DNA from: a virus
Lineage: Duplodnaviria > Heunggongvirae > Uroviricota > Caudoviricetes
Strand: one strand, 5' to 3'
IMG/VR virus record: IMGVR_UViG_3300033463_000016
Span: 125,995-170,934 of that record
Length of the DNA stretch: 44,940 bases
In this document: piece by piece, positions 2,601 to 38,647 of the stretch
Numbering within the stretch: position 1 is the first letter of the stretch
Layout of the letters: the number at the start of each line of letters is the position of its first letter
Translations under genes and position numbers: made by a program
The notes under the pieces: generated by a model
What the model was told of the DNA's origin: nothing
The model's input: the letters and a program-made list of their open reading frames with translations, nothing else
Database searches by the model: none

Positions 2601-2609
2601 GGAGAATCT

Positions 2610-3188
2610 ATGAGAAAACATACCGCTAAACGAAAACCAAATAAGATTTACATAGATGGTCAAGGGTTTGTTGTATCTGGAAAGCACTTTTATGTAGCGA
2701 AAAGAAACGCGGGCGCCAAGCTGGTTATCGCCGGTTTCGTGTACTTTGTTATTCTTATCATCATAATTGTTTTTCTTTTCAAGAGCTGCGGTACATTCAC
2801 CAACATTGTCAATTCAACGCCTGATGAAAATGCGGTGATCTGGGACGGAGAGCAATTCATTTCAAATCCAAATGTAAATACCGCCACCGGTTCTTACATT
2901 CCCGGATTTAACGTCCTCAATCTTGTTTCAAATTCCAAACATCAAAAGGTTAATTTCTATAATCCAAAGGAAAATACTTGTCTATTCAAAATGTTGTTGT
3001 TTGTTGACAATAATCTTGTTTGGCGATCGGATTATATTAATCCTGGATATGGATTCTATGAGATTGATCTTATGAGGGAGTTTTCACCGCAAGAAACCAC
3101 AGGTATATTGAAGGTTGAGTGTTACACCGCCGATCAACAGCGGTTGACCAAATCTGTAAATATAAGAATGGACGTTATTATCGTCTAA
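2610..3188 (+). CDS. Membrane-anchored protein with an extracellular beta-rich domain
   Basis: AAGGAG RBS. Hydrophobic helix LVIAGFVYFVILIIIIVFLF, then a domain (IPGF...VNFYNPKENTCLF...INPG...ECYT) resembling, from recall, accessory proteins of Clostridial surface-protein clusters. Confidence 0.65.
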   Translation: MRKHTAKRKPNKIYIDGQGFVVSGKHFYVAKRNAGAKLVIAGFVYFVILIIIIVFLFKSCGTFTNIVNSTPDENAVIWDGEQFISNPNVNTATGSYIPGFNVLNLVSNSKHQKVNFYNPKENTCLFKMLLFVDNNLVWRSDYINPGYGFYEIDLMREFSPQETTGILKVECYTADQQRLTKSVNIRMDVIIV

Positions 3189-3225
3189 ACTATCAAAAAC
3201 TATAAAGCAAAGGAGGAGAGGGAAC

Positions 3226-3756
3226 TTGAAGAAAATTATTTCCCTTGTTCTTGCCGTAACCTTGTTCGTTGCTGTTGGCATTGTTACGGCTAATGCGGAT
3301 GTAACATCTCTTGACGACACAAATTCATCCGCATATTCAACAGTCACTTTTACGCAGCCAAGTACATACTGTATCTTTATCCCGGACGTTATTGACCTTG
3401 ACTCTCAATTTTGTATTTCAGGTACGGTTAATATTATGGACTACGAGAAGTTATGCGTTACGATAACAAATCTTGATGAGAATAACGCACTGACTTTCAC
3501 GCACCAGGATGGGGTTACTACATTGAAGCGTGCTATTACTTCATATCTGGACACAGAATATAGTATTACGCTGCAAGACCTTGGGCTGCCGAGCAATTGT
3601 GTTGGATATTTTCAAAAAGGTGATTATATGTCAGAGGTTGTTTTCGGACTTGCTGACGAGTACACCGAACTAACAACAGTATCCGGACTTGGCGAACCGC
3701 CCGCCGGAGCGTACTACTCGACGATCGAATTTGAAGTTACAATGCAGGGCAACTAA
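3226..3756 (+). CDS. Secreted or surface protein with a signal peptide (fimbrial/WxL-like architecture)
   Basis: Sec signal MKKIISLVLAVTLFVAVGIVTANA. YCIFIP near the N-terminus and GAYYSTIEFEV at the C-terminus resemble beta-strand surface subunits. Confidence 0.6.
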   Translation: MKKIISLVLAVTLFVAVGIVTANADVTSLDDTNSSAYSTVTFTQPSTYCIFIPDVIDLDSQFCISGTVNIMDYEKLCVTITNLDENNALTFTHQDGVTTLKRAITSYLDTEYSITLQDLGLPSNCVGYFQKGDYMSEVVFGLADEYTELTTVSGLGEPPAGAYYSTIEFEVTMQGN

Positions 3757-3773
3757 GATAGGATCATCACCAT

Positions 3774-6587
3774 TTGGAACAGAAAAGTTGCCATCGTCTT
3801 GTCTACAAAATCGACAGTTCGGTGTTAAAGAGGGCGAATTGGAAGCTCAACCTGCCACTTCAAACCGCTATGAGAACTTGCCCCGATGTTATTGTTGCTC
3901 TGAATGACAGTCAGTGCCTCAGATTCATTGACGAGATTAACAATGTCATAGATGTAAGCAATAAAGTTCGAGCTATCCAACATAAAATCAAAAAATTAAA
4001 AAAGAGAACCAAGAGCAGAGAAAACCTAAAACTAATCAATTGCTATTATGAAACTCTCTATGAGTTACAATTCCAACGAGATTACGTTAGCGTGGTTATG
4101 AGCAGTAAAGAAGATTATGACCGCGCCAATCAGGGATTCTCTATTAACTATGGTTTAATTAACGGCAAAGAATGTATAGTTCATTATCGTAGGTTTTTAG
4201 GAACGAATGGCGGTATTAAAAAATCTACCATTGTCTATGTCAACGAACAGATTTATCCTGAGCTGAAACGTCGATTGGACAATGGTAGAAATTTGGAGTG
4301 CGAATTTGTTCCCGCAAAATTAGAAGCCTACCAAGGATTGATATGCTCTGGCTCGATTCCTCTCCCCTCTCCGCGTGGCGTAGTTGTTGTAAAAGACTGC
4401 ATCACACATTTTAAGGAAGATGTGATCTTAATCGACGATAGTGGTGAGGGCGAGCCGAAACTTACATATGAGGATGGTTATGAGATAGAACATAACGACT
4501 CTGATGGATATGGGTTGATGTCGCCGGAATACTCACGAATCGTAAACCAATATCTGAGTGGTGTGGACAAACCTATTGCCGGGATGAATGTCCGTTCCGC
4601 ATTTACCAAGGGTATGCTTTACACGTTTGATTTCATTGAGTTTGCCGAACAAGTAGCGCATACTTTTGAGATCACTGATATTTGGGGAGAGCGGCACGAT
4701 ATTCGAGGCATTGATGTTATTCTGACAGAATCGATGCTCAAACTTTGGTCGAGTTATGATAGTTGGGATGATTATTACGAGAATTGCCGTAGGAATCACT
4801 ATCATCTTTCTGCTACGAAAACTACACCTGATGAACTTGAAGCCGTGCGAGATACTAATTATCAGTTCTTGCAATCGTATGAGTTCACAGACGAGGAACT
4901 ATATAATCTTTGCTTGCCGACCATTAAAGAGATAAAAGATGTAATAGGATTGGATTACCGCAAGAGTCTTGCATTTTTGGCGGGATTCGGTCTTACAGAG
5001 GAAACCGCTTTCAGTAATAGCCTTAATTCATACATCAAGGCTCTAATGGTTGAACCAAAACTTATTAATGACCCATTTATTCGCAAAAAAATCTATCATA
5101 TGATTCGTAAGCGAATAGAAATGGGTGAGCGTGGTGCAATCCGTATCAACGCTAATTTCGCTATGATTAGTGGCGATCCTTACGCTTTGTGTCAATCAAT
5201 TTTCAATTTGCCCGTTACGGGTTTATTAAAAGCCGGAGAGGTCTATCACAAATATTGGATCGATAAAGGTTCAAAGGAAATTGCGTGCTTCCGCGCACCG
5301 ATGACCTGTCATAATAATATCAGACGAATGAAACTGTCTGATTCTTCGGACGCCGCATATTGGTATCGTTACATCGATACAGCTCTTATCTATAACGCTT
5401 GGGATAGCTCTTGTGAAGCTATGAACGGCGCCGATAAGGACGGCGACACAAATATGTGTACTGACGATCCGATTATTGTTCAGAATACTAAGCCGTTGCG
5501 AACAATTATTTGTTTGCAAAAGAATGCTGCTAAGATAATTCCAGATGAGGCGTCAATCGTCGAATCTAATAAATTAGCTTTCAATGACGAGATCGGAGAA
5601 GTAACCAATAGAGTTACAAGTATGATTTGTATTGCCGATGGATTTCCAAAGGATTCTGAGGAATACAAAATCTTGCAATACCGTATTATGTGCGGTCAGT
5701 TATTTCAGCAGAATACCATCGATCGAGCAAAAGGTATCATATCCAAGTCTATGCCGACGAGTTGGTATTCTTTGAGGGATAATCACGTTGAGGATAACGA
5801 TGACGAGTCTGTTGCGGAAGAAAAGAAACTAAATCAAAGAATTGCGGCATATCGCAAGCCATACTTTATGACGTATGTTTATCCGAAATTAAGATCGGAG
5901 AACAATACCTATATAAAGAACAGTTCTTTTGGCGCAATTCGTAGATTTAATAAATACGGAATCAATAGTATTGGAGATTTGATAGACTATCCCGATCCTA
6001 CGCCGGAGATGGTTGACTTTATTGACTATTACAATAAACTGACTCCTGTTGATAATAACAGATGTGTAGTGAATCGTATTTCGTGGCTGTTTGAGGATGA
6101 ATTTAAGACGTTCATATCAAACTACTCAAAATTGGTCAGAGAATCCGGATTAAATGTTTTTGATTATAGGATGCTGAAATCCGGCGTCGAGTATAGCCAA
6201 TTCCAATACAATAAGATCAGTGATATTTATAAGGAATATCAACTTAGGATAAAAGAATATCAAAGAGAACTTCGTACAAAGAAGATAGAGAAGTTTGAAA
6301 ATATCGAACAGCATATGATTCTCGTAGATTTCTTCAAGCGTCAATGTGCAGAGATTTGTCCTAACGAGCGGGAATTATGTGATATTCTTTTGGATATGTG
6401 TTATAAAGCGGAGAACTCAAAGCAGTTCGTATGGGATATGTGCGGAGATGCTATTATCGAGAATCTGTTAGATAAGCACAAGAGAAAAATAACATATCCG
6501 CAATTAGTTACCGATGATGGTGACTTTGAATATTGTGGCAAACAATTCAAAATGTGCGAAATGCGAATCGAGGTGATTAACGAATGA
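3774..6587 (+). CDS. yonO: YonO-like single-subunit DNA-dependent RNA polymerase (cellular RdRP-related)
   Basis: 937 aa. Catalytic DxDGD motif in AMNGADKDGD (5433-5447), upstream CFRAP (RxP) motif, and SPbeta-like position ahead of HU and head genes. Confidence 0.85.
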   Translation: MEQKSCHRLVYKIDSSVLKRANWKLNLPLQTAMRTCPDVIVALNDSQCLRFIDEINNVIDVSNKVRAIQHKIKKLKKRTKSRENLKLINCYYETLYELQFQRDYVSVVMSSKEDYDRANQGFSINYGLINGKECIVHYRRFLGTNGGIKKSTIVYVNEQIYPELKRRLDNGRNLECEFVPAKLEAYQGLICSGSIPLPSPRGVVVVKDCITHFKEDVILIDDSGEGEPKLTYEDGYEIEHNDSDGYGLMSPEYSRIVNQYLSGVDKPIAGMNVRSAFTKGMLYTFDFIEFAEQVAHTFEITDIWGERHDIRGIDVILTESMLKLWSSYDSWDDYYENCRRNHYHLSATKTTPDELEAVRDTNYQFLQSYEFTDEELYNLCLPTIKEIKDVIGLDYRKSLAFLAGFGLTEETAFSNSLNSYIKALMVEPKLINDPFIRKKIYHMIRKRIEMGERGAIRINANFAMISGDPYALCQSIFNLPVTGLLKAGEVYHKYWIDKGSKEIACFRAPMTCHNNIRRMKLSDSSDAAYWYRYIDTALIYNAWDSSCEAMNGADKDGDTNMCTDDPIIVQNTKPLRTIICLQKNAAKIIPDEASIVESNKLAFNDEIGEVTNRVTSMICIADGFPKDSEEYKILQYRIMCGQLFQQNTIDRAKGIISKSMPTSWYSLRDNHVEDNDDESVAEEKKLNQRIAAYRKPYFMTYVYPKLRSENNTYIKNSSFGAIRRFNKYGINSIGDLIDYPDPTPEMVDFIDYYNKLTPVDNNRCVVNRISWLFEDEFKTFISNYSKLVRESGLNVFDYRMLKSGVEYSQFQYNKISDIYKEYQLRIKEYQRELRTKKIEKFENIEQHMILVDFFKRQCAEICPNERELCDILLDMCYKAENSKQFVWDMCGDAIIENLLDKHKRKITYPQLVTDDGDFEYCGKQFKMCEMRIEVINE

Positions 6588-7465
6588 TTATCTTGAATGA
6601 GCTTGAATGTGCCGAGAATTGTTTGAAGAACGGAATACTTGAAAATGATCCATATTTAACACTATCTATTTTAGCAAAATACTATTACCACCACTTGGGC
6701 TATCGCAAAAAGAAGATCGCACGGTTGCTGATCGAGTTTTTGTCAAAATTCTATTCAAGATATGAAATGAACGAAATGTCTTGGGAGGCGAGTGCCGAAA
6801 AACTGGCGGCTAACGCCGGTAAGTATCCATTGTTTGAAATCGTTGGTGTTAAAATATCAAAAGCAGAGATGCAAACCATAACCGATCTGAATAATAAGGT
6901 TTTGGAACGTCTTGCATTTACAATGCTTTGTTTAGCCAAACTCGCCAATATCAAGAATCCAGAAAATAACGGTTGGGTTAATGCTGAATCAAAAGATATT
7001 TTTAAGTATGCGAGAATATCATCAACAATAATTGAGAGAGAGAAGAAAATCGGAAAACTCTGGCAGTTGGGGTTATTGGAGTTTTCAAAGAGAAATGATA
7101 ATCTGAATTGTAGGGTCACATTTATTTCTGACGAGGATGAGGAAGTTCTATTCATATCAGACTTTCGTGAGCTGGGGTATGAATATTTACTATATAAGGG
7201 AGAAAATTTCATTCGTTGTGCCGAATGCGGCATTTTGACTCGCGGCAATAAGGCTGGCACGAAAAAGTATTGTAAAGACTGTGCTGCTTATACACCACAG
7301 GAAACCAAAACGGTTGTTTGTGTAGATTGCGGTAAAGAATTCAAAGTTGACTCGAAAAACAATCACACTTGTCGTTGTACACAATGTCAAAGCAAAAGAA
7401 ATCTTGAATTAAATCGTATTTCTTCACGGAATCGTATGAAAAAATACAGATCAGCGCAAGAATAA
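6584..7465 (+). CDS. Hypothetical protein with C-terminal zinc-finger repeats, translationally coupled to the RNAP
   Basis: ATGA overlap with the RNAP stop. CAEC..CKDC and CVDC..CTQC cysteine pairs. Confidence 0.75.
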   Translation: MIILNELECAENCLKNGILENDPYLTLSILAKYYYHHLGYRKKKIARLLIEFLSKFYSRYEMNEMSWEASAEKLAANAGKYPLFEIVGVKISKAEMQTITDLNNKVLERLAFTMLCLAKLANIKNPENNGWVNAESKDIFKYARISSTIIEREKKIGKLWQLGLLEFSKRNDNLNCRVTFISDEDEEVLFISDFRELGYEYLLYKGENFIRCAECGILTRGNKAGTKKYCKDCAAYTPQETKTVVCVDCGKEFKVDSKNNHTCRCTQCQSKRNLELNRISSRNRMKKYRSAQE

Positions 7466-7511
7466 CGCTTATGTTACGGTTATCAATTTTGAGATAAAAG
7501 AAAAAAGAAAA

Positions 7512-7570
7512 ACACAATATATAGTAAAAGTCCACTGTTTAAGCCATTTTTGAGCCACTATATATTGTGT
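7512..7570. repeat. Perfect 14-bp inverted repeat upstream of the tRNA cluster
   Basis: ACACAATATATAGT (7512-7525) and ACTATATATTGTGT (7557-7570). Confidence 0.8.
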
Positions 7571-7702
7571 ATAAAAATTTTCAAAATTTCGTTAAATGAA
7601 GGGAATATACCCTTTACTCTCATTTCTTTACTTTCTCTTTCTCTTGAAGCACCAGCTCGGCAATAGTTGGGCTGGTGCAAATCCCCTTACTTATGATAAT
7701 TA

Positions 7703-7779
7703 GGGAGCGTGGTCAAGAGGGTCAAGACACCGCCCTTTCAAGGCGGTAACGCTGGGTTCAAATCCCGCCGCTCCTACCA
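7703..7779 (+). tRNA. trnE: tRNA-Glu(TTC)
   Basis: Cloverleaf; anticodon arm CCGCC-CTTTCAA-GGCGG; G1.U72; encoded CCA. Confidence 0.93.
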
Positions 7780-7786
7780 GATATAA

Positions 7787-7863
7787 GCGGATATGGTGTT
7801 CAACGGTTAGCACGTTGGCTTGCCAAGTCAAAAGTACGAGTTCAAATCTCGTTATTCGCTCCA
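7787..7863 (+). tRNA. trnG: tRNA-Gly(GCC)
   Basis: Anticodon arm TTGGC-TTGCCAA-GTCAA; U73 discriminator; CCA. Confidence 0.92.
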
Positions 7864-7937
7864 TATAAGACACGCACAGCAATTTATTTAGAACAATTTT
7901 GCAGTTTAAAATTATTCGAGGGTGTCTTGATTTTTAT

Positions 7938-8014
7938 TGCGGGATGGAGCAGATGGTCAGCTCGACTGCCTCATAAGCAGTAGGTCGTGGGTTCGAGTCC
8001 CACTCCCGCAACCA
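7938..8014 (+). tRNA. trnM: tRNA-Met(CAT) with an initiator-like body
   Basis: Anticodon arm ACTGC-CTCATAA-GCAGT; acceptor TGCGGGA/TCCCGCA; A73; CCA. Confidence 0.9.
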
Positions 8015-8037
8015 ATTCATAATAGTTTAATCAATAT

Positions 8038-8122
8038 GGGAGAATCGTATAGCGGCAATTACGGCAGACTGTAAATCTGTTCCCGCAAGGGTTCGATGGT
8101 TCGAGTCCATCTTCTCCCACCA
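8038..8122 (+). tRNA. trnY: tRNA-Tyr(GTA)
   Basis: Anticodon arm GCAGA-CTGTAAA-TCTGT; long variable arm; CCA. Confidence 0.93.
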
Positions 8123-8125
8123 TAT

Positions 8126-8202
8126 GCTTGTGTAGCTTACGAGGTCGGAGCATCGGTCTGAAAAACCGAAGGATGGTGGTTCGATACCACCCGCAAGCAC
8201 CA
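8126..8202 (+). tRNA. trnF: tRNA-Phe(GAA)
   Basis: Anticodon arm TCGGT-CTGAAAA-ACCGA; CCA. Confidence 0.92.
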
Positions 8203-8206
8203 ATAT

Positions 8207-8282
8207 GGTTCCGTAGTTCAATCGGTTAAAACATAGCCCTGTCACGGCTAAGTTGAGAGTTCGATCCTCTCCGGAATCGCCA
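8207..8282 (+). tRNA. trnD: tRNA-Asp(GTC)
   Basis: Anticodon arm TAGCC-CTGTCAC-GGCTA; G73; CCA. Confidence 0.93.
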
Positions 8283-8285
8283 TTC

Positions 8286-8360
8286 GTAGGTGTAAGTCAA
8301 CGGTAGACGGCTTGCTTTGGGAGCAAGTAGCTGGGGGTTCGAGTCCTCTCACCTGCACCA
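8286..8360 (+). tRNA. trnP: tRNA-Pro(TGG)
   Basis: Anticodon arm CTTGC-TTTGGGA-GCAAG; acceptor GTAGGTG/CACCTGC; A73; CCA. Confidence 0.88.
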
Positions 8361-8411
8361 AACAGAGTTCGGCACGCCTCTTGAAAATGCGTACCACGCC
8401 GAGCCATATAT

Positions 8412-8497
8412 TCCAGCGTAGTTCAGTTGGTAGAACGCCTGACTGTTAATCAGGATGCCGAAAGGAATCGCGTGTTCGAGTCACGCCGCTGGAGCCA
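8412..8497 (+). tRNA. trnN: tRNA-Asn(GTT) with an atypical 15-nt variable region
   Basis: Anticodon arm CCTGA-CTGTTAA-TCAGG; acceptor TCCAGCG/CGCTGGA; G73; CCA. Confidence 0.9.
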
Positions 8498-8603
8498 TAT
8501 GTAGTAGAGGGTATGTTTTTGCGTGAGCATAGAAGATGAAAGCCCTTCCCTGTAGGATGCGTCCGAAGGGGGCTTCACGGCGGTAGGAGAATGACCGCTA
8601 TAT

Positions 8604-8679
8604 GGGGGATTAGTTCAGTTGGGAGAACACCTGCTTTGCAAGCAGGGGGTCAGCGGTTCGAGTCCGCTATCCTCCACCA
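8604..8679 (+). tRNA. trnA: tRNA-Ala(TGC)
   Basis: Anticodon arm CCTGC-TTTGCAA-GCAGG; G3.U70 identity pair; CCA. Confidence 0.95.
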
Positions 8680-8786
8680 TTGGTATGAAACAGGACAAGG
8701 AGTAGCTACCCTTCTTGATGCTGCTACGTCAAGATTACTGTTTTGTACTATCAATAAACAAATTTTAGCAGAAAGGAGTTTATATT

Positions 8787-9566
8787 ATGATAGGCATTTA
8801 TAAATTTACCAACAAAATCACAGGAGAATCTTATATCGGGCAGAGCAGAGATATACACAAGCGGTACATCCAACATAAATGTAGGCACGAAAAACGATTA
8901 CGTGAAAACGCTCCGGTAGAAGATACATATTTTCATTCAATGTTAAATCACTATGGATTTTGGAATTTTGATTTTGAGATTATCGAAGAATGTAACATAG
9001 ATGAATTGAATGAGAAAGAAATCTATTATATTAAGGCATTTAATACGCTTTATCCAAACGGTTATAACAAAGATAAGGGTGGTAATAATCCGCATCCAAT
9101 GAAATTTGATTCTTACGATACAGTAGAAGAAGTTATCAAATTGCTACAAACATCAAAAATGTCAAATATAGAAATAGGCAAGATTTATGGTGTATCGGAT
9201 CAAACTATTTCTGACATTAATAATGGCAGAATATGGCGAAAAGATGAAATTTCATATCCTATTCGTAACACACATAAAATCGAAGGTGAAACAAGAAGAA
9301 AAGCGAAAAAAATTAAGTATTATTGTTCTATGTGTGGTAAAGAATTAAGTGGTAAACGTAAAACAGGGTTATGTGCGGATTGCTGTGAAATCACTTATAT
9401 ACATCATTGTTCTATTCCTCCGAAAGATGTGTTATATGAATTATTATTAAAAGAAACATTCGTGAAAGTTGCTAAGATATATAATGTTTCAGATAATGCG
9501 GTTAGAAAATGGTGTGATAAATATAATATACCGCGACATTCCTCATATTATAGAAATGTTGCTTAA
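8787..9566 (+). CDS. Free-standing GIY-YIG endonuclease (homing-endonuclease type)
   Basis: N-terminal GIYKFTNKITGESYIGQS..RYIQH motif, conserved E..YI and GYN, C-terminal HTH-like and CxxC segments. GAAAGGAG RBS. Confidence 0.88.
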   Translation: MIGIYKFTNKITGESYIGQSRDIHKRYIQHKCRHEKRLRENAPVEDTYFHSMLNHYGFWNFDFEIIEECNIDELNEKEIYYIKAFNTLYPNGYNKDKGGNNPHPMKFDSYDTVEEVIKLLQTSKMSNIEIGKIYGVSDQTISDINNGRIWRKDEISYPIRNTHKIEGETRRKAKKIKYYCSMCGKELSGKRKTGLCADCCEITYIHHCSIPPKDVLYELLLKETFVKVAKIYNVSDNAVRKWCDKYNIPRHSSYYRNVA

Positions 9567-9584
9567 TGCCCGAAAGGGCTTTAT

Positions 9585-9660
9585 GCTGGTGTAGTTCAGT
9601 TGGCAGAACGCGAAACTTGTAATTTCGATGTCGGCGGTTCAAATCCGTCCATCAGCTCCA
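9585..9660 (+). tRNA. trnT: tRNA-Thr(TGT)
   Basis: Anticodon arm CGAAA-CTTGTAA-TTTCG; CCA. Confidence 0.93.
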
Positions 9661-29529: not shown

Positions 29530-31779
29530 ATGTCTGAATATATTGCAACTGTTAAAGCGACGTTAGATGATTCTGATATAGGTGCGAAAATAAAAGCTAT
29601 AGAGGGCAAAAGTATTACATTAAGTAATTTTGTTGTTAATCCAAATAGTATAGCAAGTTCAATTCAAAACGCATTAAACTCTACTCGGTTTACAATTAAT
29701 AATATTGAAATACCAAATTTGAATATTGCAAGGACAATGCAAACGCAAGGGCGTGCAGCAGGACAGCAATTTTCTCAATCATTTAACAGCAGTATGGCAC
29801 AAGTATCAACAAGAGTCCATACTACTACGCAAGAAATACGTCAAATGCAACAAGTATTAGGTAGTATGAATTTAGGTCGTTCTTCAATAGACGCTGTTAC
29901 TCGTGATTTAGAAAGTTTGAATATTGCAATTAGTAGAATTACAACCAGAACAAGCGGAAATGCGCTTAATGTTAGAGTTAGTGGAATTGATGAACTTGGT
30001 AGAGCGGTAACTATTGTAAGAGAATTTGATTATGAATCAGGGCAAATTGTGAATGTAGGCAGAACAATATCTCAAACATTTGATACTGGCGCACAAGCGG
30101 CAAAAACTTTTGCTGATACTCTTGAACGTGCTAATACCGCTATGAGTAGCGGCGGGTTAGAGGCGTCAATTTCTGCTGTAAGAGCGCAGTATGAACAGTT
30201 AGGCAATACGGGTCACGAGAGATTAACTGTTATTGCCACTGATATTACAGAATTAACTACTCTGCAAAATCAAATGGCTAATAGCACGAGTGACGATACG
30301 CTTGTAGATTCGTACAATAGGTTTAATGAAGTATTACGCAGAGTTCAAAACAATTTAAAGGTTGTATCAAATTATACCAGAGAATTTGCAAGTGAAACAG
30401 AAGTTTTAACATTGCAGGGCAGAATTGAAACCTGGTTGCAAAACAATTCACGTGCGGCAAAAGCATATGGATCACAATTAACTGGCTACATTAATGCGTT
30501 AAGAAATATGAGTACAACAGGAAATCGCGCAAGAAGTCAGTTGAATCTAATAGCACAAGGTTTCAAGGAAGTTGATGCAGCCGCAACATCAGCAGGATTA
30601 AAAGGAAAAACTTTTGCTGATAAATTAAGCGGTGCGTTTTCAAGTATAACTCGTTATATTAGTTCTGCCACATTAATATACGCCGCGATTCGTGCAATTC
30701 GTTCCGGCATTACTACGGTTGTTGAATTAGATTCAGCTTTGGTTGATTTAAAGAAAACCACTGATGCTACAGCAGATCAATTGCGTGAGTTTTATTATTC
30801 ATCAAATGATATTGCCAAGCAGTTAGGTGTAACTACTAAAGATGTTATTCAATCTGCCGCAGAATGGTCACGTCTTGGTTATTCGATTAAAGATGCTGAA
30901 ACGATGGCAAAAACTTCTTCTATTTTTGCATCCATTTCACCTGGAATGGACATTGATAGAGCCACAGAAGGATTAGTTTCTACACTAAAGGCTTATGGCA
31001 TTGAAGCGGAAGATGCTCTTGACGGAGTAGTAAGTAAAATCAATGCGATCGGTAATTCACAAGCATTAAGTAATGCGGATATTGTTGAGTTCTTAACAAA
31101 ATCATCTGCCGCAATGAAAGAAGCCAACAACACATTAGAGCAAACTATTGCAATTGGAACTGCGGCTACGGAAATCACACAGGACGCATCTGCTGTAGGT
31201 AATGCTTTAAAAACGATTTCTATGCGTATCCGCGGGTATGACGAAGAAACAGAAGAATACGTTGGCGATATAGAAGTTCTTTCAGGAAAGATTGCCGACC
31301 TGACTAAAACTGCTAAAACACCAGGTGGAATTTCATTATTTACTGATGAAACTAAAACAACATATAAATCGACCTACGAATTATTAAAAGATATATCGGA
31401 AATATACGATGATCTTACCGATAAACAGCAGGCAGGATTATTGGAAGCCCTTGCGGGCAAGCGCCAGGGTCAAATTATTGCTTCAATTTTGAACAATTTT
31501 GGGGCTGTAGAAAAATCGCTTGCAACTATGCAAGACAGTGCTGGTAATGCAGCCGCTGAAATGGCTATTATTATGGATTCTTTAGAGTATAAGATTAACG
31601 CTCTAAAGGAAACAGCAGTTGGAATATGGCAAAATATATTCCATAGTGAATCATTTGGAACATTTATTGATTTTCTAACAAGAGTGTTAGGTCTAATTGA
31701 TTCATTAACCGAAAAAATAGGATTTTTTGGTACAGCATTAGCGACAATATCAATCGTTAAAGTGATAAAGAGCATATCT
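29530..31779 (+). CDS. Tape measure protein, exon 1 (750 aa; TP901-type TMP core)
   Basis: GAAAGGAGG RBS; VELDSAL.DLKKTT, EWSRLGYS, STLKAYG and ISMRIRG core motifs. The frame ends with TAA exactly at the predicted 5' splice site. Confidence 0.9.
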
Positions 31780-32183
31780 TAACCTAATAAATATGGTATT
31801 GACAGAGGATAGCGCAGATAAGAAAACACAAGATGGTCGTGTTGACAAGTCTGCGAGCATAAAGCTCTATAAATATTTTATGAGAAGTAAATGCTGGGAA
31901 ACTGGTTAAACCGATTATGCTACAACGTGATTGGAAACAATGAGCGTGAATGCCGCGAAAGCAGAAAAAAATAATCGGCTGGCACAAGGGAATACATACG
32001 CCTAAATGCCTTGCGTAAGCAGATAGGATAACATCAGCAGGACACCGACTTAAAAGCGGAATCCCCAGAGGCTACCCATTCTCTGAGTCATATCGCCTTA
32101 GTATATGGCTTATAAGGTATAGCCCAAATATGGAACTCAACTCCAAAAAGTGATACGCATATCAGCGTTGTTGAGAGATAAAC

Positions 32184-32206
32184 AAAGACCGCATAATGCG
32201 GTCTTT
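32184..32206 (-). terminator. Terminator hairpin ending the intron-borne antisense gene
   Basis: AAAGACCGC-ATAAT-GCGGTCTTT, 9-bp perfect stem, 10 nt past the cargo stop codon. Confidence 0.75.
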
Positions 32207-32216
32207 ATAAACATTA

Positions 32217-32651
32217 TTACGGTTTCCACGAGAAACCGCATTTGGCACAACGATTTACGGTTTTATTACTACCAATAAAACCAGTTACTATACTAAATCC
32301 ACGTTGACCTGTGGATATTTGATTTGAGCCGCAACGAGGGCATACCACAGGAGAATTAAATTGACTAAAATAATCTCTCAATTTTTCTTCCTGTTGACTA
32401 TAATATGTTTTTGCTGAAGGTTCGATTTTAACAGTACATCCCAACGATTTTAAGCGTTGGGAAATATTAAATGCTATCTCACTTGAAACACCATCGGCAA
32501 TGACTTTATAGGATGGATTATTTGGTTGAGGTAATGAAGCACCATTATTGGCAAATAATAAAAAGTTTGTGAACATATCGATTTGCATTCGGTTTTTTCT
32601 ATGTTGATGTTCACTTAAATATCCAGTAAGAGTAACCTTGAATAAATCCAT
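32217..32651 (-). CDS. Intron-borne cargo protein (144 aa): L7/L12-CTD-like segment plus C-terminal zinc ribbon
   Basis: AAAAGGAG RBS before the ATG at 32651; CPRCGS...GFIG...NRCAKCG zinc ribbon; no LAGLIDADG, GIY-YIG or HNH motif. Confidence 0.8.
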   Translation of the reverse strand: MDLFKVTLTGYLSEHQHRKNRMQIDMFTNFLLFANNGASLPQPNNPSYKVIADGVSSEIAFNISQRLKSLGCTVKIEPSAKTYYSQQEEKLRDYFSQFNSPVVCPRCGSNQISTGQRGFSIVTGFIGSNKTVNRCAKCGFSWKP

Positions 32652-32671
32652 AGCAATTCTCCTTTTCTTAT

Positions 32672-32700
32672 ACTTTATCATTTTTGTATAAGAGAGTCAA
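32672..32700 (-). promoter_or_regulatory. Sigma-A promoter for the cargo gene, inside the last 35 nt of the intron
   Basis: Minus strand reads TTGACT-17 bp-TAAAGT with a TGn extension. Confidence 0.65.
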
Positions 32701-32704
32701 TATG

Positions 32705-35700
32705 TCTGTCTTAAAATCAGGAGAATATCTCGCTATGGCGGCAAACCTGACTAATTTGCAGAAAGTATTATTTACACTTACTTCTGCATTTCCAAATCTC
32801 GGAGCGGCAATCACAACGGTGATTGCCACCTTACGAAATGGTGAAGGAGCCGCAGTAGCATTCAAGGTAGCATTGCAAGGACTTGTTAATGTTATTAAAG
32901 CTCATCCATATCTTCTTGTGGCGGCAGCGGTCGTTGCACTTACAGTTGCTATGGTTAAATTGGCTGGAGCTGCCAAAGAAGCATCAAAAGCCGCAGACGA
33001 ATTAAAGCGTTCTTCAATGGAGGAAGCATCAAAAGCCAGAGAAGAAGTTAATACATTAAATCAATTAATTGCAAAATATAAAGAACTTGCAGAAAGCGAC
33101 ACGCAAGATGTAAATACAAGAGAAGAAATTGCAAGTGTTCAGAGTGATATTACAGATTTGGTAGGAGCGCAAGCAGACAATCTTGATTTAGTTAATGGTA
33201 AACTTGATGAAGAAATTGCAAAATTAAACCAAATCAGAAAAGAAGAAGCTGATAAAGCAGTTGCGTCATCCGTAAGTGCATATCACACCGCCAAAGACTC
33301 ACACGATAAGGCAATGGGTGAGTATTCTGCCTTAATGTTTAATGGATACGCATATGTTAGCGATGAATGGTGGCAGAATGAGGATGATCTAATTGACCTA
33401 TTAAGAGATAATGGTTTTACCAATGTTTCAACAGGTGGACTCTTTAATTCTCATACATTTATTACTGACCAAGAGGACGAAAATAATCGTCGTCTTGAAG
33501 GGGCAACTGAAAAAGCTGAATTTTTAAGCAGAATGATTGATGTTATCAAACAGCAATATTCTGATTATGCTTCAAGCGATATATATAATGCTCTTGTTAA
33601 GCAAAGGGACGCATATCTTAAATATGGTAGTGATATGAAGAAAGCGGCTCAAGATCTTGCCGATGCTGAAATAATAGCTAAATCTTATGATGGAGAATTA
33701 GGCAATATTGATGTGAAATCTCTGGAAGATTATGAGCAATACAGAGATAAACTTATTGAATTAGTATCTAATAGTCTTGACTTAAAAGAAGCCTTAGATA
33801 ATGGTGATTTAACAACAGAGGATATTATTGGTAGGGTAGATACTTATTTAGGCACAATGCCGGTATTTTCTGAATATTTTAATCAGTTTTCAAAACTGGA
33901 ACAACATAAAGAAAAGATAAAAGCAATCAAGGATGCTTTTAATAGTTCGGATTGGCTAAAGAGTATTGATAGTATTACTGCACGTCGTGAAAGAGATTCA
34001 TTCACAGAATGGATTGATAGTCTACCGGACGATGCCGTAGACATTGTTTATAAAATATCCTGCGAAACCGATACTGCAAAATATAATTTACAAGATTGGA
34101 AAGATGCTCTTGCAAATTATGATGTTGTAGCAAATTTAACAGCAGATGATATAAAGAAAAAATGGGAAAATTCTGTATCAGAAACAAATAAAGCCATCTC
34201 AAATATTGGTTCTGTTCAAGAGATATTATCATCACAAAAGTCAGGAGTATCAATTTCAATTGATGACTTTAATTCTGATAGTTTAAAGGATTACCGAACT
34301 GCTCTTGAATATGTTAATGGAACAATGCAGTTAAATGCTGATAAGGTTAATGAAATTATTCAGGCAAAAACAGATGAGCAAATAGCTGTAAATAACACTA
34401 ATAAGGCATTAGCTCAGGCAAAATATTTAGATAACGCCAAGCAAATAGAGCAGTATCGTAAACAATTACGAGAATCTAATAACTTAACAGATACACAGAA
34501 ATCTAAAATACAATCAAATATTGATGCTTTACTCAAAGAAAATAGCACACTTGCTACAACGTGTTCTCAATATGATCTTTTATCTGCATCATTAAGAGAA
34601 GCCACAGGAGCCTATCAACATTGGTTAAATGCTCAGAGTAGTTCCGATTATGGCGATATGGCAAATGACGCCGTTAGTGCTATTCAACGTATCAGAGATA
34701 CATACGATAGTGAATCTGATATATTTGGTAATTTTGGCTCAAAGAAATTCGATGCCGCTGTTGATTTCATTGTTCCAGATAGTGTTGATCCAAATGATTT
34801 AGACGCCATAGAATCCTATATGGCTGATTTCCAAAAATATTTAACATTTGATGATAATGGAAAAGCTGATGGATTAAACATTGATAAGTTTTTATCTGAT
34901 TCTGTTGAAGCTGGATTGATGTCTTACAGCGAAGATGATGGCTTTAAGATTCTTGGTGGCAAGAAAATGGAAGATTTTGCCGAAGGTCTAAACCTTTCAT
35001 CGGGAGTTGTTCAGGCATTTTTTGACGAACTTCAATTAAAGGGTGGAGAATTTGATTGGAGCGATGAAGCGGTCAAGACAATCGGTGATTTAGCAATTGA
35101 AGCAAATGAAGCGGCAGAAGCATTAAGAAAGATTTATGGTAATAGTGACCTAAAAATCAAAATGGATGTTTCTGATTTAGAAACCACAGAAGAACAGGTT
35201 GCGGCGCTTGATGCCACGATAGCAGAAATGGATGGCATTAAGGCAAAACCTGGTGTTGATTCATCAGAAATTGATAATGCTAACGCGGTCATTCAATATT
35301 GCTTGATGCAAAAACAATTATTGACACAACCAGATGTAATGCGTGTCGATACATCGAAGGTTGAAGGCGATATTGGTAATGCAATCGCTTTATTACAAGA
35401 TTTTCAAAAAGCACAGAATGATTTAGAAATCAAGCAAAAAATAGGTGCTGATACGACAGATGCGAAAAATGAAATAACATCATTAACAACTCAAATACAG
35501 AATCTATCCCCTGATATTAAGGCAAAATTAGAATTAGATTCCACATCTACCGAGTCAATAAAAACATCAATATCTTCTTTGACTGCCGAAACAATTAATG
35601 TTAAGGCGGAAGTTGATGCAAGTGCAATTTCCGGTTATACACCAGAAACGAAACAGTGTGATGTAATTTATAATCCGAAAACTGATTTATTGCCTAAATC

Positions 35701-38647
35701 TTTTGATTCTTTAGATAGAACAGTTAATTATGTTGCAGATACATCAGGATTGCCAAAATATTTTTCAACTATTACACGGTACGTAAACTATGTTAAAACT
35801 GGTGATGTAGATGTCAATGGCACGGCTCATTTAAGTGGAACAGCAAATGCAAGTGGCGATTGGGGAACTGCCCCAGGAGGAACAACTCTTGTTGGTGAAC
35901 TTGGTCGTGAAATCGTTGTTGATCCACATACAGGAAAATGGTACACTGTCGGAGATAATGGAGCGGAATTTAGGGACATTCCAGCCGGTGCAATCGTATT
36001 TAATCATAAACAGACTGAGCAGTTGCTTAAAAATGGTTATGTAGCCGGTCGTGCATCTGCGCTTGTTAGTGGAACGGCATTAGTCACTGGTGGCTATAAA
36101 CCATACACGCCGGGTAATTATTCTGGTGGCGGTGGTGGAAGTTCAAGTTCTTCTTCCTCATCAAGTTCGAGTAGCAGCAAGAGTTCAAGCAGTAGTTCAA
36201 ATGATAGTTCTGACGACAAAGAGAGCATAAATTATATTGAAATTGCCCTCGATCGTATTCACCGTGCCGTCGAGCGGTTAAAGAAAGTAGCCGAAAGTAC
36301 ATACAAAACTCTTTCAAAACGATTAGCTGCTACAACTGATGCAATCTCAAAGGTCAATGAAGAATTAGATGCGCAAAACAAGGCATATAACGCATATATC
36401 AAAAAAGCTAATTCTATAAACCTGTCAGAATCAATCAAGAAGTTGGTACGCGAGGGAGCATACAATATAACTGAATATGACTCTGATACCGCAAAACTAA
36501 TTAATGAATATAAAGAGTATTATGAGGCTGCATTAGATTGTAAAGACGAAATCCAACAACTAAACGAAGATATTGCGGCTCTTTATCGTGATAAGTTCGA
36601 TCTTATTGAAAAGGATTTTGATAATAAACTTCAAAGGCTTGAAAATTCAGCAAAGCGAACAGAAAGCGAAATTGATTTATTAGAAGCCCAACATTATTTT
36701 GTATCTGGTTCATATTATAAACAGTTAGCTGACCAAGAAACAGCTAACATTGATATGCTTGATAAGAAATATGCTGATCTAAGTGTCGCTTTAGATGAAG
36801 CCGTAAAGTCAGGCAAAATTGCGGAATACAGCGAAGAATGGTACGATATGAAACTTGCCATTGAGGATGTTCGTGCCGCAATTGATGACGCCGCTGTTTC
36901 TTTGGCAGAATACGAAGATAAGATTCGTGAGATCAATTGGAGTATCTTCGATTATGGTCTTGAAAGAATTGGACAAATAACCGCTGAGTCTGACTTCTTA
37001 ATCGACTTGATGAGCAATTCAAAAATGTTCGACGATTCTGGTGCATTTACCAATGAGGGACTTGCAACTGCCGGACTTCACGGAGTAAACTACAACACTT
37101 ATATGGGCGAAGCGGACAGATACGCACAAGAACTTATTGATATTAATCAGAGAATTGCTGACGACCCTGCCGATATGAGATTAATTGAACGCCGCGAAGA
37201 ATTACTCAAATTACAGCAGGATGCAATTAGAAACGCCGAGCAAGAAAAGCAAGCAATCAAAGATTTGGTTGCGGAAGGAATCAAAGTCCAACTCGATGCC
37301 TTAAAAGAACTGATTGACGAGTATAAAGATTCTTTAGATGTGCAAAAAAGTTTCTATGATTTCCAAAACAAGGTTGAAGAAAAGACTAAAAATATTGCGG
37401 AAATTCAAAAGAAATTAGCAGCATATCAAAACAACGTGTCAGAGGAAACCCAAGCGAAAATTCAAAAGTTGCAAGTTGAATTGTCTGATGCTTATAAGGA
37501 ATTAGAAAAAACCGAGTATGAGCAGTATATCGCAGATGCTAAAAAATTACTCGACGATATGTATAACGATTATGAGGAATTACTGAATAAACGTTTGGAC
37601 GATATTGATTCCCTGATGTCCGATATGATTGATACCATCAATACTAATGCAACCGATATTGGCACTACGATTAGTGAAGTTACTGGCAATGTTGGTTATA
37701 CTCTAACAGAGAATATGACCGATATTTGGAGTAAGAGTGATGCTGCCACAGAGGGGATTATTACCAAATATGGTGATGGTTTTTCGGAATCTCTTACGAC
37801 AGTAAACGCATTGCTTACAAGCATCGAAAATGGTGTTGATATATTAACTGGCGGCAAGATTACCGAGCAAAAAACCGCAGCGGAGAGAAAGGCTGAAAGC
37901 GAAGCAAAAGCCGAAGAAAATCCGAAAAAGGAAGAAGAACCAAATCAGACCACTCAGCCTCAAACTCAGCCAAGTCAAACCACAGCGCCCAAGAGAACCG
38001 ACAAAGATAACTATGGTGTTGCTTTGGCTATTATCAACGGTAATTATGGTTGGGGCGATGGTAATACTCGTAAAAAGCGACTTGAAGCCAAAGGATTTAA
38101 TTATAACACCGTCCAGGGTATTGTAAATAAACTTTGGAATGAGGGCTACGTGATGTCGAGCGCGTGGGTTGGAAGATACTACGGGATCAAGGATTTAACA
38201 CCTTATGGGTATAGCAAGTATAAAACAGGTGGATTGGTTGATTATACTGGTCTTGCTCAACTTGATGGCACGCCATCAAAGCCTGAATTAGTATTAAACG
38301 CACAAGATACGGATAACTTTATCGCTTTAAGAGATGTTTTACGTAGTTTAGCAAGTATGCCGCTTTCATTTATGAATGGACAAACTTATGCTGGCTTGGA
38401 GAGTCCAGAGTTCTCAGCGTTTGCGTTCGACACGTTTAAGCGTTATGCTTTAACAAATGGTTCTACCGGTCGTGGTGATACAACTGTGACATTTGGTGAT
38501 ATACTGATCGATCACGTTGAGGATTATGATGATTTTATCCGTCAGCTTAAAAGCGATAAGAAATTCGAGGAATTTATTAATGCAATAACTGTTGATCGAT
38601 TGAGTGGCAGAAGTTCATTATCAAAAAACAATATTAATTGGAGATAA
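32705..38647 (+). CDS. Tape measure protein, exon 2 (1980 aa; spliced product 2730 aa)
   Basis: Long Ala/Ser/Glu-rich helical ORF with a Gly/Ser linker, coiled coils, a CW_7-like motif and C-terminal TGGLVDYTGLAQLDGTPSKPELVLN; in frame with exon 1 after intron removal. Confidence 0.9.
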   Translation, partial: SVLKSGEYLAMAANLTNLQKVLFTLTSAFPNLGAAITTVIATLRNGEGAAVAFKVALQGLVNVIKAHPYLLVAAAVVALTVAMVKLAGAAKEASKAADELKRSSMEEASKAREEVNTLNQLIAKYKELAESDTQDVNTREEIASVQSDITDLVGAQADNLDLVNGKLDEEIAKLNQIRKEEADKAVASSVSAYHTAKDSHDKAMGEYSALMFNGYAYVSDEWWQNEDDLIDLLRDNGFTNVSTGGLFNSHTFITDQEDENNRRLEGATEKAEFLSRMIDVIKQQYSDYASSDIYNALVKQRDAYLKYGSDMKKAAQDLADAEIIAKSYDGELGNIDVKSLEDYEQYRDKLIELVSNSLDLKEALDNGDLTTEDIIGRVDTYLGTMPVFSEYFNQFSKLEQHKEKIKAIKDAFNSSDWLKSIDSITARRERDSFTEWIDSLPDDAVDIVYKISCETDTAKYNLQDWKDALANYDVVANLTADDIKKKWENSVSETNKAISNIGSVQEILSSQKSGVSISIDDFNSDSLKDYRTALEYVNGTMQLNADKVNEIIQAKTDEQIAVNNTNKALAQAKYLDNAKQIEQYRKQLRESNNLTDTQKSKIQSNIDALLKENSTLATTCSQYDLLSASLREATGAYQHWLNAQSSSDYGDMANDAVSAIQRIRDTYDSESDIFGNFGSKKFDAAVDFIVPDSVDPNDLDAIESYMADFQKYLTFDDNGKADGLNIDKFLSDSVEAGLMSYSEDDGFKILGGKKMEDFAEGLNLSSGVVQAFFDELQLKGGEFDWSDEAVKTIGDLAIEANEAAEALRKIYGNSDLKIKMDVSDLETTEEQVAALDATIAEMDGIKAKPGVDSSEIDNANAVIQYCLMQKQLLTQPDVMRVDTSKVEGDIGNAIALLQDFQKAQNDLEIKQKIGADTTDAKNEITSLTTQIQNLSPDIKAKLELDSTSTESIKTSISSLTAETINVKAEVDASAISGYTPETKQCDVIYNPKTDLLPKSFDSLDRTVNYVADTSGLPKYFSTITRYVNYVKTGDVDVNGTAHLSGTANASGDWGTAPGGTTLVGELGREIVVDPHTGKWYTVGDNGAEFRDIPAGAIVFNHKQTEQLLKNGYVAGRASALVSGTALVTGGYKPYTPGNYSGGGGGSSSSSSSSSSSSSKSSSSSSNDSSDDKESINYIEIALDRIHRAVERLKKVAESTYKTLSKRLAATTDAISKVNEELDAQNKAYNAYIKKANSINLSESIKKLVREGAYNITEYDSDTAKLINEYKEYYEAALDCKDEIQQLNEDIAALYRDKFDLIEKDFDNKLQRLENSAKRTESEIDLLEAQHYFVSGSYYKQLADQETANIDMLDKKYADLSVALDEAVKSGKIAEYSEEWYDMKLAIEDVRAAIDDAAVSLAEYEDKIREINWSIFDYGLERIGQITAESDFLIDLMSNSKMFDDSGAFTNEGLATAGLHGVNYNTYMGEADRYAQELIDINQRIADDPADMRLIERREELLKLQQDAIRNAEQEKQAIKDLVAEGIKVQLDALKELIDEYKDSLDVQKSFYDFQNKVEEKTKNIAEIQKKLAAYQNNVSEETQAKIQKLQVELSDAYKELEKTEYEQYIADAKKLLDDMYNDYEELLNKRLDDIDSLMSDMIDTINTNATDIGTTISEVTGNVGYTLTENMTDIWSKSDAATEGIITKYGDGFSESLTTVNALLTSIENGVDILTGGKITEQKTAAERKAESEAKAEENPKKEEEPNQTTQPQTQPSQTTAPKRTDKDNYGVALAIINGNYGWGDGNTRKKRLEAKGFNYNTVQGIVNKLWNEGYVMSSAWVGRYYGIKDLTPYGYSKYKTGGLVDYTGLAQLDGTPSKPELVLNAQDTDNFIALRDVLRSLASMPLSFMNGQTYAGLESPEFSAFAFDTFKRYALTNGSTGRGDTTVTFGDILIDHVEDYDDFIRQLKSDKKFEEFINAITVDRLSGRSSLSKNNINWR

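Follow-up and report, generated by a model that had tools for sequence, protein, structure and literature searches.

The interrupted tape measure gene

The DNA analysed here (the window, 44,940 nucleotides (nt), positions 125,995 to 170,934 of the IMG/VR virus record IMGVR_UViG_3300033463_000016) comes from a virus of the Caudoviricetes and contains a gene for a tape measure protein (TMP) whose coding sequence is broken into two long open reading frames (ORFs) by 925 nt. A first-pass annotation of the window had proposed that these 925 nt are a group I intron that splits one TMP gene and carries, on the opposite strand, a gene for something other than an endonuclease. The features on which it built this proposal (the exon ends, the internal guide, P1, P10, the G at 32704, P3, P4, P7, P8 and the P5 extension) are all present where it had placed them. 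The locus is laid out as follows.

29530..31779, plus strand: TMP exon 1, 750 amino acids (aa) from the ATG at 29530, with the ribosome-binding site (RBS) AAGGAGG at 29516-22
31780..32704, plus strand: predicted group I intron, 925 nt, with TMP halves on both sides and a terminal G (omega G) at 32704
31780-~32180, plus strand: predicted ribozyme core, the 5' ~400 nt of the intron
32182-32700, minus strand: antisense cassette, making up the intron's 3' half (P9.1 to 3' splice site)
32705..38647, plus strand: TMP exon 2, encoding 1980 aa before the stop; TCTGTC, with which it begins, is the P10 strand

Exon 1 contains a PhageMin_Tail domain and ends in a hydrophobic run, ...IVKVIKSIS; directly after its last bases, ...ATATCT (ending at 31779), an in-frame TAA closes the frame. 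The second long frame opens at 32684 and ends at 38647. When 31779 is joined to 32705, 925 nt are removed and the two frames become a single product of 2730 aa (counted from the ATG at 29530), ...IVKVIKSIS-SVLKSGEYLAMA..., in which the junction reads ...KSIS-SVLKSG....

The TMP of the nearest named phage, Brevibacillus phage Sundance, is a single ORF of 2528 aa, and exon 1 aligns with its residues 699-1082, the hydrophobic stretch after the PhageMin_Tail domain. We retrieved 35 IMG/VR relatives of exon 1 (loci are given L numbers here). The TMP is uninterrupted at the site in about 20 of them and runs on for more than 1300 further codons; it ends within a few codons of the site in L003, L004-6, L014, L021/22, L024, L027-29, L030 and L035, and exon 1 of L024 terminates in ...KSIS and a stop, as in the window. 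Single tblastn high-scoring segment pairs (HSPs) in L019 and L037 cross the joined exon junction, so that the predicted spliced product is colinear with uninterrupted TMPs, and the in-frame removal of 925 nt to give 2730 aa, as first claimed, is confirmed. The flanks of the interruption in L003, ...FIKNFG and QLKLLG..., bracket the exact point at which L025 continues ...FIKNFGELKLLG.... These comparisons support the reading of the apparently split tape measure as one gene interrupted by an insertion. Among named phages, neither a megablast of 31000-33500 nor a tblastn search with the N-terminus of exon 2 gave a match, and an exact 20-mer from the P7 region described below is absent from IMG/VR.

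A covarying group I core

The 5' part of the insertion, together with the exon ends, can be drawn as a group I ribozyme. All of the following elements lie on the plus strand.

31801-31811: internal guide sequence (IGS), GACAGA-GGATA
31775..31811: P1, 5' exon TATCT (31775-79) with GGATA (31807-11), and U31779.G31807 at the splice site
Within P1: loop with a small hairpin, ACC/GGT, and the P10 guide GACAGA (31801-06)
31801-06 with 32705-32710: P10, GACAGA/TCTGTC
31813-18 with 31850-55: P2, CGCAGA/TCTGCG
31882-86 with 32079-83: P3, GAGAA/TTCTC, enclosing P4-P6 and the 5' strand of P7
31892-97 with 32034-39: P4, TGCTGG/TCAGCA
31902-06 with 32023-27: P5 stem, invariant, with a G.A mismatch
31911-18 with 31971-78: P5a, CCGATTAT/ATAATCGG
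31926-46: P5b, hairpin with a GAAA loop
31953-64: P5c, hairpin with a GAAA loop
31981-84 with 32007-10: P5d, GGCA/TGCC
32045-47 with 32057-59: P6, 3' of P4
32070-74 with 32120-24: P7, GGCTA/TAGCC, forming a pseudoknot with P3
32084-93 with 32103-12: P8, 10 bp, TGAGTCATAT/ATATGGCTTA
Between P8 and P7: J8/7, TAAGGTA
32131-34 with 32142-45: P9 hairpin, TGGA/TCCA
32136-41 with 32170-75: L9 pseudoknot, P9 loop CTCAAC/GTTGAG
32155-58 with 32165-68: P9.1 hairpin, ACGC/GCGT

P7 and P3' are separated by CCCA alone, which leaves no P7.1 or P7.2, and the P5 extension is long, with two GAAA loops; in both respects the core differs from the IA1 and IA2 introns that are usual in phages. The core junctions around P7 (the R and S elements and J8/7), CCAGAGGCUAC and UAAGGUAUAGCC, resemble the RF00028 consensus GUUCAaAGACUA and gAAGAUAUAGUC by inspection, unscored, and the P7 flanks resemble the consensus GUUCAaAGACUA...AAGAUAUAGUC. 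For P9.0, two-base candidates can be found at every locus and are uninformative.

Homologous cores were found with nhmmer in 17 distinct loci, and 16 of these were aligned with MAFFT. The structure was drawn on the window, and as controls the 3' partners were slid by 1-3 columns and 500 shuffles were made. Across the 16 introns, 82% of cells form standard pairs, as against 33-44% after sliding, and both-sided changes occur in 47/84 pairs, as against 13-19. The observed covariation score was reached by 0/500 shuffles, a figure that overstates independence in introns related by descent; the slid control and the count of distinct pair types are unaffected by that kinship.

Compensatory changes among the homologues occur in P1, P2, P3, P4, P5a/b, P6, P7, P8 and P10. 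In the 16 introns the paired cells amount to 92% in P3, 91% in P4, 100% in P6, 96% in P7 and 82% in P8. P5a and P5b, like P6, are 100% paired, with both-sided changes at 7/8, 5/6 and 3/3 pairs respectively, and P2 has them at 5/6 pairs; MAFFT displaces P2, P8 and P9 in some of the sequences, and the counts for these three are therefore underestimates. The compensated variants include GAGAA/TTCTC, GAGGG/CCCTC and AAGGG/CCCTT in P3; CCGATTAT/ATAATCGG, CCAATCAT/ATGATTGG and CCAGATAA/TTATCTGG in P5a; CCG/CGG, AAG/CTT and CAG/CTG in P6; and GGCTA/TAGCC, GACTA/TAGTC and GAGTA/TATTC in P7, with GAGCA/TGCTC in L030. Several peripheral helices were read by eye. Among the pairings read in this way is that of the P9 loop with a segment about 30 nt downstream, which shows four compensated variants: CTCAAC/GTTGAG, CTCAC/GTGAG (L024), CTTATC/GATAAG (L038, L041, L048, L051) and GAATTT/AAATTC (L096, L089); the MAFFT columns are misaligned here and the counts too low.

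A covariance model built here from P3-P9.1 (R1) scores the window at 295 bits and finds one copy in the 171-kb genome. The P4-P6 part of R1 also matches other TMP introns, at E values from 1e-7 to 1e-21, among them the L035 intron with a sense-strand HNH-like ORF and an Rfam-positive one in L021 (E 1e-7). The uninterrupted homologues and the covarying helices, P1 and P10 included, thus support the identification of 31780-32704 as a group I intron between the two halves of one TMP, as the first-pass annotation had it.

Splice sites

The pairings that would define the splice sites covary with the exons themselves. The P1 pairs change together with the end of exon 1 (TATCT/GGATA, TGGCT/GGTCG, TTGCT/GGCGT), and the U.G column at the splice site is kept in 13/16 aligned homologues; in L096, L089 and L079 MAFFT has shifted P1, which by eye reads GGAT/GTCT(AA). 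Changes in the six guide bases that precede the P1 strand are matched by changes at the start of exon 2, of which eight different versions occur among the 16 loci. The following guides and exon 2 starts illustrate this.

Window and L024: GACAGA/TCTGTC
L038 and L039: GGCAGA/TCTGCC
L041: AGTAGA/TCTACT
L050 and L046: AGCAGA/TCTGCT
L053: AACAGA/TCTGTT

P10 contains one G.U in L047, L048 and L051 and is of TCAC/TCAT types (GTGA/TCAC) in L096, L089 and L079. At 16/16 loci a G precedes the predicted site, exon 2 is in frame with the long downstream ORF, and its first 5-6 bases complement the locus's own guide. We regard this covariation of P10 with exon 2 as the strongest single argument, from sequence comparison, that the element has been selected to splice.

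Three other candidates were rejected. The first-pass annotation had drawn a long-range pairing of 32128-32138 with 32694-32703. It is drawable in the window; the closest homologue, L024 (81% identity), has no complementary 3' segment, and 32136-41 covaries with 32170-75 instead, so that the pairing is not a conserved element. An intein is inconsistent with stop codons in all frames, and translational frameshifting or bypassing with the length of 925 nt and the change of frame.

The antisense cassette

Between P9.1 and the 3' splice site lies what appears to be a complete bacterial transcription unit, all of it on the minus strand.

32700-32695: -35 box, TTGACT, beginning 4 nt inside the 3' splice site
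32680-79: TG extension, within a 17-nt spacer; sigma-70-like
32677-72: -10 box, TAAAGT
32664-59: RBS of the antisense gene, AAGGAG
32217..32651: antisense ORF, 144 aa, MDLFKV..., starting at the ATG at 32651 behind AAGGAG
32182..32208: intrinsic terminator, a 12-bp stem followed by TTTGTTTAT, between the ORF stop and the ribozyme core

The ORF had been listed as 32217-32681; we take the ATG at 32651 as its start. A terminator scan flags the 32182-32208 hairpin on the minus strand only, and L024, L038 and L039 have the terminator too; L041 and L048 lack it. A second hairpin (32218-32240, minus strand; 10 bp followed by ATAATGTTTA) lies directly after the stop of the ORF, upstream of the main terminator. 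A promoter-like pair is found at the same position in 12/14 homologous loci, with 9-11/12 matches and mostly with TG. Its start lies 2-6 nt inside the 3' splice site, except in L079, where the two overlap. The RBS and ATG likewise lie 56-67 nt from the 3' splice site in 12/14 loci. The conserved position of the promoter implies that the intron's final ~55 nt also serve as promoter for the antisense gene.

The ORF has 57 homologues (E <= 1e-3). Almost all of those with readable context lie antisense between a PhageMin_Tail ORF and an ORF of ~1975 aa, with a gap of ~430 nt that corresponds to the ribozyme core. The homologues are highly variable except in the last ~41 residues, CPRCGSNQITTGQRGFSxVTGFIGSNKTVNRCxKCGYSWKP. 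In this zinc ribbon, synonymous changes outnumber non-synonymous ones by 18 to 5 between the window and L041 and by 1014 to 630 over all pairs, which indicates constraint on the protein and not on the RNA.

An AlphaFold model (predicted local distance difference test, pLDDT, 82) begins with a beta-alpha-alpha-beta-alpha-beta domain; this part, residues 1-80, resembles in fold the C-terminal domain (CTD) of ribosomal protein bL12 and is followed by a helix and the C-terminal zinc ribbon CPRCGSNQISTGQRGFSIVTGFIGSNKTVNRCAKCGFSWKP. The family profile matches E. coli and Thermotoga bL12 across the whole CTD at E 5e-5. The best structural match of model residues 1-77 is a bL12 CTD, 8yeq (Z 7.3, root-mean-square deviation 2.9, 68 residues aligned), with ClpS next, and precomputed annotation places PF00542 on many of the homologues. 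The CTD-like domain stands at the N-terminus or, in some homologues, after a zinc ribbon, and is followed by a zinc ribbon. The N-terminal domain by which bL12 dimerises and binds bL10 is absent from the ORF family, as is the flexible hinge; judged by its sequence, the product is not a ribosomal protein but a relative of the factor-binding domain of bL12. A Foldseek search of the ORF against the PDB gave nothing at E <= 0.001; among the AlphaFold clusters its matches are unnamed zinc-ribbon proteins only, and in the Atlas they are unnamed clusters, viral and from Bacillota, that bear the Pfam labels Ribosomal_L12 and zinc ribbon.

Pfam, PHROGs and PADLOC place the ORF in no nuclease family; weak generic zinc-ribbon matches were the only ones, and PADLOC returned nothing. 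No catalytic motif of the LAGLIDADG, GIY-YIG, HNH, His-Cys box, PD-(D/E)xK or EDxHD type was found in it, and at its invariant positions only Cys, Pro, Ser, Gly, Arg, Thr, Asn and Trp occur; none is His, Asp or Glu. No transposase was found in the 3' part of the intron either, at significance; an IS1595 zinc-ribbon domain matched weakly, below threshold (E 0.044), and the 144-aa ORF stands there alone. The proposal of an antisense, non-endonuclease cargo is therefore supported as far as sequence and fold show, by the conserved ORF, the excess of synonymous changes, the signals conserved in position and the lack of a nuclease family match, although it could still encode a nuclease of a novel kind.

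The window's own genome also encodes, outside the window, a free-standing protein of 304 aa (L058 1219-2133, that is, G000:C1 ~1219-2133) that ends in this zinc ribbon, with 77% identity over 43 residues. Its gene belongs to a co-directional cluster at the left end of the genome.

Other interrupted tape measure genes and their cargo

The remaining interrupted TMP loci carry different introns, which by inspection have P/Q/R/S-like elements. R1 detects those of L021 and L003 weakly and those of L014/L027 and L004/L035 not at all; the group I nature of the latter two lineages is read by inspection, together with a P1/P10 prediction for the provirus G001. At every resolved interrupted locus an antisense ORF adjoins the 3' exon and ends in a related zinc ribbon, CPxCxS...KIS...G..G...K.W.C.NCG..F/W. 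This holds for L003, L004-6/G001, L014, L021/22, L024, L027-29 and L035, in at least three sequence-distinct intron lineages.

The first-pass annotation had suggested comparing related loci for the same core with different cargo, and one such locus exists. In L030 (4676-5879) a core homologous to the window's (its P4-P5abc region matches R1) is accompanied by a different antisense ORF, which encodes a hydrophobic protein of 72 aa behind the RBS GGAGGTG; the contig ends before exon 2.

A far larger case is that of G001, a 165-kb provirus (L004-6, L126) with a putative group I intron of 7,728 nt in its TMP gene (L126, G001:C1:138500-156000, at 1026-8753). Its guide, GTTTACAA-GCCC, predicts that exon 2 starts with TTGTAAA; the one occurrence of GTTGTAAA in 17.5 kb lies 7,728 nt downstream, and the join is in frame. 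The joined peptide gives one HSP to the uninterrupted TMP of L025 (E 1e-31). The cargo genes lie on both strands and include an XRE-type helix-turn-helix (HTH) gene, KwaA-like and KwaB-like genes (convergent, with a 14-nt overlap), a CI/LexA-like repressor (HTH_3 plus Peptidase_S24), an NsnB/AriA-like AAA ATPase and further ORFs, and the antisense zinc-ribbon ORF comes last, abutting the splice site.

These two loci bear on a further idea of the first-pass annotation, that the intron is a splice-out "safe harbour" for an independently expressed gene within an essential virion gene. The different antisense ORF of L030 fits it, and the accessory genes that fill the putative intron of G001 are what it predicts. 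The zinc-ribbon ORF is not an arbitrary cargo, however; in several intron lineages it regularly accompanies the 3' splice site.

Further introns lie elsewhere in these genes. L035 (5618-7435) contains one with a sense-strand ORF of 436 aa that has HTH repeats and an HNH-like C-terminus, and L021 has another at a different position (2544-2984; RF00028, 40.7 bits). R1 matches P4-P6 upstream in L025 (1696-1785 and 2369-2496) and L033 (2397-2528), both of whose TMPs are uninterrupted at the window's site. In this clade the TMP gene is a hotspot for introns.

Proposed mechanism

The observations made directly at this locus are its anatomy, the covariation, the in-frame junctions, the colinearity with uninterrupted TMPs and the purifying selection on the ORF. 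From these we infer splicing, antisense expression and a role for the protein, and we consider it highly probable that the late transcript self-splices to yield one TMP while host RNA polymerase independently expresses the antisense gene. In the late TMP transcript, the 5' 400 nt would fold into a ribozyme (P1-P9) whose GACAGA-GGATA aligns the end of exon 1 (P1, with its U.G) and the start of exon 2 (P10). Two transesterifications would excise the 925 nt and join ...KSIS to SVLKSG... in a single TMP of 2730 aa. The antisense cassette, with its host-type TG-extended promoter, RBS, ORF and terminator, would be autonomous; host RNA polymerase could express it while the late operon is silent, and the terminator would shield the ribozyme core and exon 1 from antisense transcription. 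Because the whole cassette would be spliced out, it would cost the TMP nothing.

The product of the ORF most likely acts in an accessory (moron-like) role, by binding nucleic acid or a component of translation or transcription. The bL12-CTD-like domain suggests contact with translational GTPases, and the zinc ribbon suggests binding to nucleic acid or a polymerase.

Several points weigh against this mechanism. First, Rfam cmscan of the whole window, RF00028 included, gave no group I match at the gathering score, and RF00028 gave none at E <= 10 on 31500-33000 or 31770-32160. Second, as noted above, the kinship of the 16 introns inflates the shuffle statistics. Third, the P5 stem, invariant and with a G.A mismatch in the 16-intron alignment, has no support from covariation. 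Fourth, apart from P10, no conserved contact was found that would return the 3' splice site across the 520-nt cassette. Fifth, ~480 nt are shared by the predicted transcripts of the two strands, and this overlap could disturb folding or provoke cleavage of double-stranded RNA. Finally, the sequencing runs that contain the stretch are of bovine-gut DNA only, with no RNA run among them. The first of these is an outcome that the first-pass annotation had named beforehand as telling against its intron. The same Rfam library does detect another TMP intron, further upstream in L021, and in our judgement the blank does not refute the window's intron, the comparative evidence overriding it.

Alternative explanations

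The alternative that survives best leaves the intron in place and differs as to the protein. The zinc-ribbon ORF could encode the intron's own mobility or maintenance protein: a new homing factor, a splicing helper or a protector of the element. It occupies the position where a homing endonuclease gene would be, it adjoins the 3' splice site at every resolved interrupted locus in at least three lineages, and in G001 it has kept that position despite ~7 kb of other genes added upstream. Its zinc ribbon is nearly invariant in an otherwise variable protein, and the invariant R117, K130, N133 and R134 would suit nucleic-acid binding. A mobility factor of this kind is nevertheless unlikely, given that Pfam, PHROGs and PADLOC place the ORF in no nuclease family, that no His, Asp or Glu is conserved outside the Cys4 site, that the N-terminal domain is bL12-CTD-like, and that the same zinc ribbon is found on the free-standing 304-aa protein and in other non-TMP contexts. 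Moreover, divergence in the ORF is similar to that in the exons (window and L024 share 47% aa identity in the ORF and 82% nt identity in the core), which fits vertical descent and not recent homing.

A second possibility is that splicing is partial or does not occur, and that the locus yields two polypeptides, with exon 1 stopped at the TAA of the intron and exon 2 started at the in-frame ATG at 32702-32704. The ends of the intron lend themselves to this. Its first codon is an in-frame stop (TAA or TGA) in 16/16 homologues, and its last triplet is an in-frame ATG, GTG or TTG at 12/16 loci, or in 8/10 sequence types by our own grouping, where chance would give 3/16 of NNG triplets; in the window, a weak Shine-Dalgarno-like AAGAGAG lies 8 nt upstream of the ATG. 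The start-like triplet could allow a product of exon 2 only, or it could reflect constraint near the terminal G. However, the homologues have no conserved RBS before the exon 2 start codon, the whole core has been kept by compensatory evolution, and the covariation of P1 and P10 with the exons is explained only by selection for splicing. A tape measure, too, must normally be a single chain to set tail length. We therefore regard two polypeptides as very improbable.

That the insert is no intron, and is instead a moron or mobile cassette that has split an ancestral TMP into two genes, or an assembly artefact, is barely credible: the Rfam blank and the insert's own promoter and terminator are set against a full group I helix set that covaries, IGS-exon pairing that predicts the exact in-frame junction at 16 loci and, as regards an artefact, homologues in many independent metagenomes and, more weakly, the presence of the stretch in two bovine-gut DNA runs of one sample, possibly the window's own source.

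Relation to known introns

Self-splicing with an independently expressed antisense gene, the reading preferred here, can be set beside several known systems. In the nrdD (sunY) intron of phage T4, an ORF also lies 3' of the core, and the distant 3' splice site has to be returned by pairings such as P9.0 and P10. That ORF is on the sense strand and related to endonucleases, whereas the window's is antisense, and here P10 is the sole long-range contact with support.

A close parallel lies in the Bacillus cereus group, whose prophage TMP genes carry the group I introns TMP-IVS1, IVS2 and IVS3 (Tourasse and Kolsto 2008, PMC2504315). Those introns, too, sit inside the TMP genes of Firmicutes (pro)phages; different introns occupy one site, related introns adapt P1 and P10 to their sites, and presence is patchy (PMC2504315). 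Introns in TMP genes were thus already known, a point on which the first-pass annotation needs correcting. The B. cereus introns are of types IA1 and IA2, have P7.1 and P7.2, and occur with homing endonuclease genes or without a complete one (PMC2504315). In contrast, the window's intron has no P7.1 or P7.2, bears an elaborate P5 extension, is missed by Rfam and carries, under a promoter and terminator of its own, a conserved antisense gene that does not resemble an endonuclease gene.

IStrons such as CdISt1 and BcISt1, in which a group I intron is fused to an IS200/605-type element, share with it a 5' ribozyme core, protein-coding cargo placed before the 3' splice site and splicing that makes the insertion harmless (PMC4227781). 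Their cargo is TnpA/TnpB, the transposon that moves the element (PMC4227781). In the window's intron no transposase was found; the cargo is antisense, would be transcribed from a host-type promoter and is bL12-CTD/zinc-ribbon-like, and the element is known from one homologous site in one gene family.

Protein genes on the strand opposite the ribozyme also occur in nuclear rDNA group I introns, in the form of antisense His-Cys box homing endonuclease genes (PMC9548176). Those introns are eukaryotic, and their homing endonucleases are expressed by Pol II, some of the genes containing spliceosomal introns (PMC9548176); the present intron belongs to a phage, has a bacterial promoter, RBS and terminator, and encodes no endonuclease by the tests run. 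Finally, the giant mitochondrial group I intron ND5-717 of corallimorpharians holds ordinary functional genes (PMC6545197). It shows that functional genes beyond homing endonucleases can reside in a group I intron and is relevant to the putative 7.7-kb intron of G001, although it is organellar, with sense-strand housekeeping genes and back-splicing (PMC6545197), and the genes in the phage element are accessory and defence-like and occupy both strands. Antisense or opposite-strand ORFs go unmentioned in a 2014 review of group I introns in bacteria, and in the part of the literature that we searched we found no report of antisense non-endonuclease cargo or of defence genes in phage introns. What looks new is the conserved antisense non-endonuclease cassette, TMP introns and IStrons having been described before.

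If the proposed mechanism is right, several consequences follow. In annotation, the "split" TMP of a whole clade of large gut phages would become a single gene whose intron escapes the standard RNA library. Phages would have a route by which host-promoted accessory genes, including defence genes in relatives, could be housed inside an essential late gene at no coding cost, and the logic of IStrons would apply also to antisense cargo that is no transposon. A new intron-associated function could be tested for in the zinc-ribbon/bL12-like protein that is constantly encoded beside the splice site. The loci may also represent a natural set of ribozymes that tolerate inserts of 0.5-7 kb between P9 and the 3' splice site, which would be of interest for RNA folding and engineering. 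A broader picture can be drawn, though we rate it as rather unlikely: TMP introns in SPbeta-like phages of gut Firmicutes would be a general, heritable cargo platform at the hydrophobic core of the TMP, anchored by an antisense zinc-ribbon gene whose promoter overlaps the 3' splice site and which, more than a passenger, encodes a new class of intron-associated factor for spread, maintenance or control. Between this gene and the ribozyme core the platform would accept up to 7 kb of further genes, such as the Kiwa-like and ATPase defence genes and the CI-like repressor of G001, all spliced out.

Host and other features of the window

The phage is uncultured, its DNA being from a bovine gut metagenome. 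Near the C-terminus of the TMP there is a CW_7 cell-wall-binding repeat (window 38020-38140, exon 2 residues 1779-1817), and the TMP homologue of G001 (L126 8879-13393) contains choline-binding repeats; together, these sequence features point to a Gram-positive host. Elsewhere in the window, an array of ten tRNA genes lies at 7703-9657, with Rfam scores of 55-68 bits.

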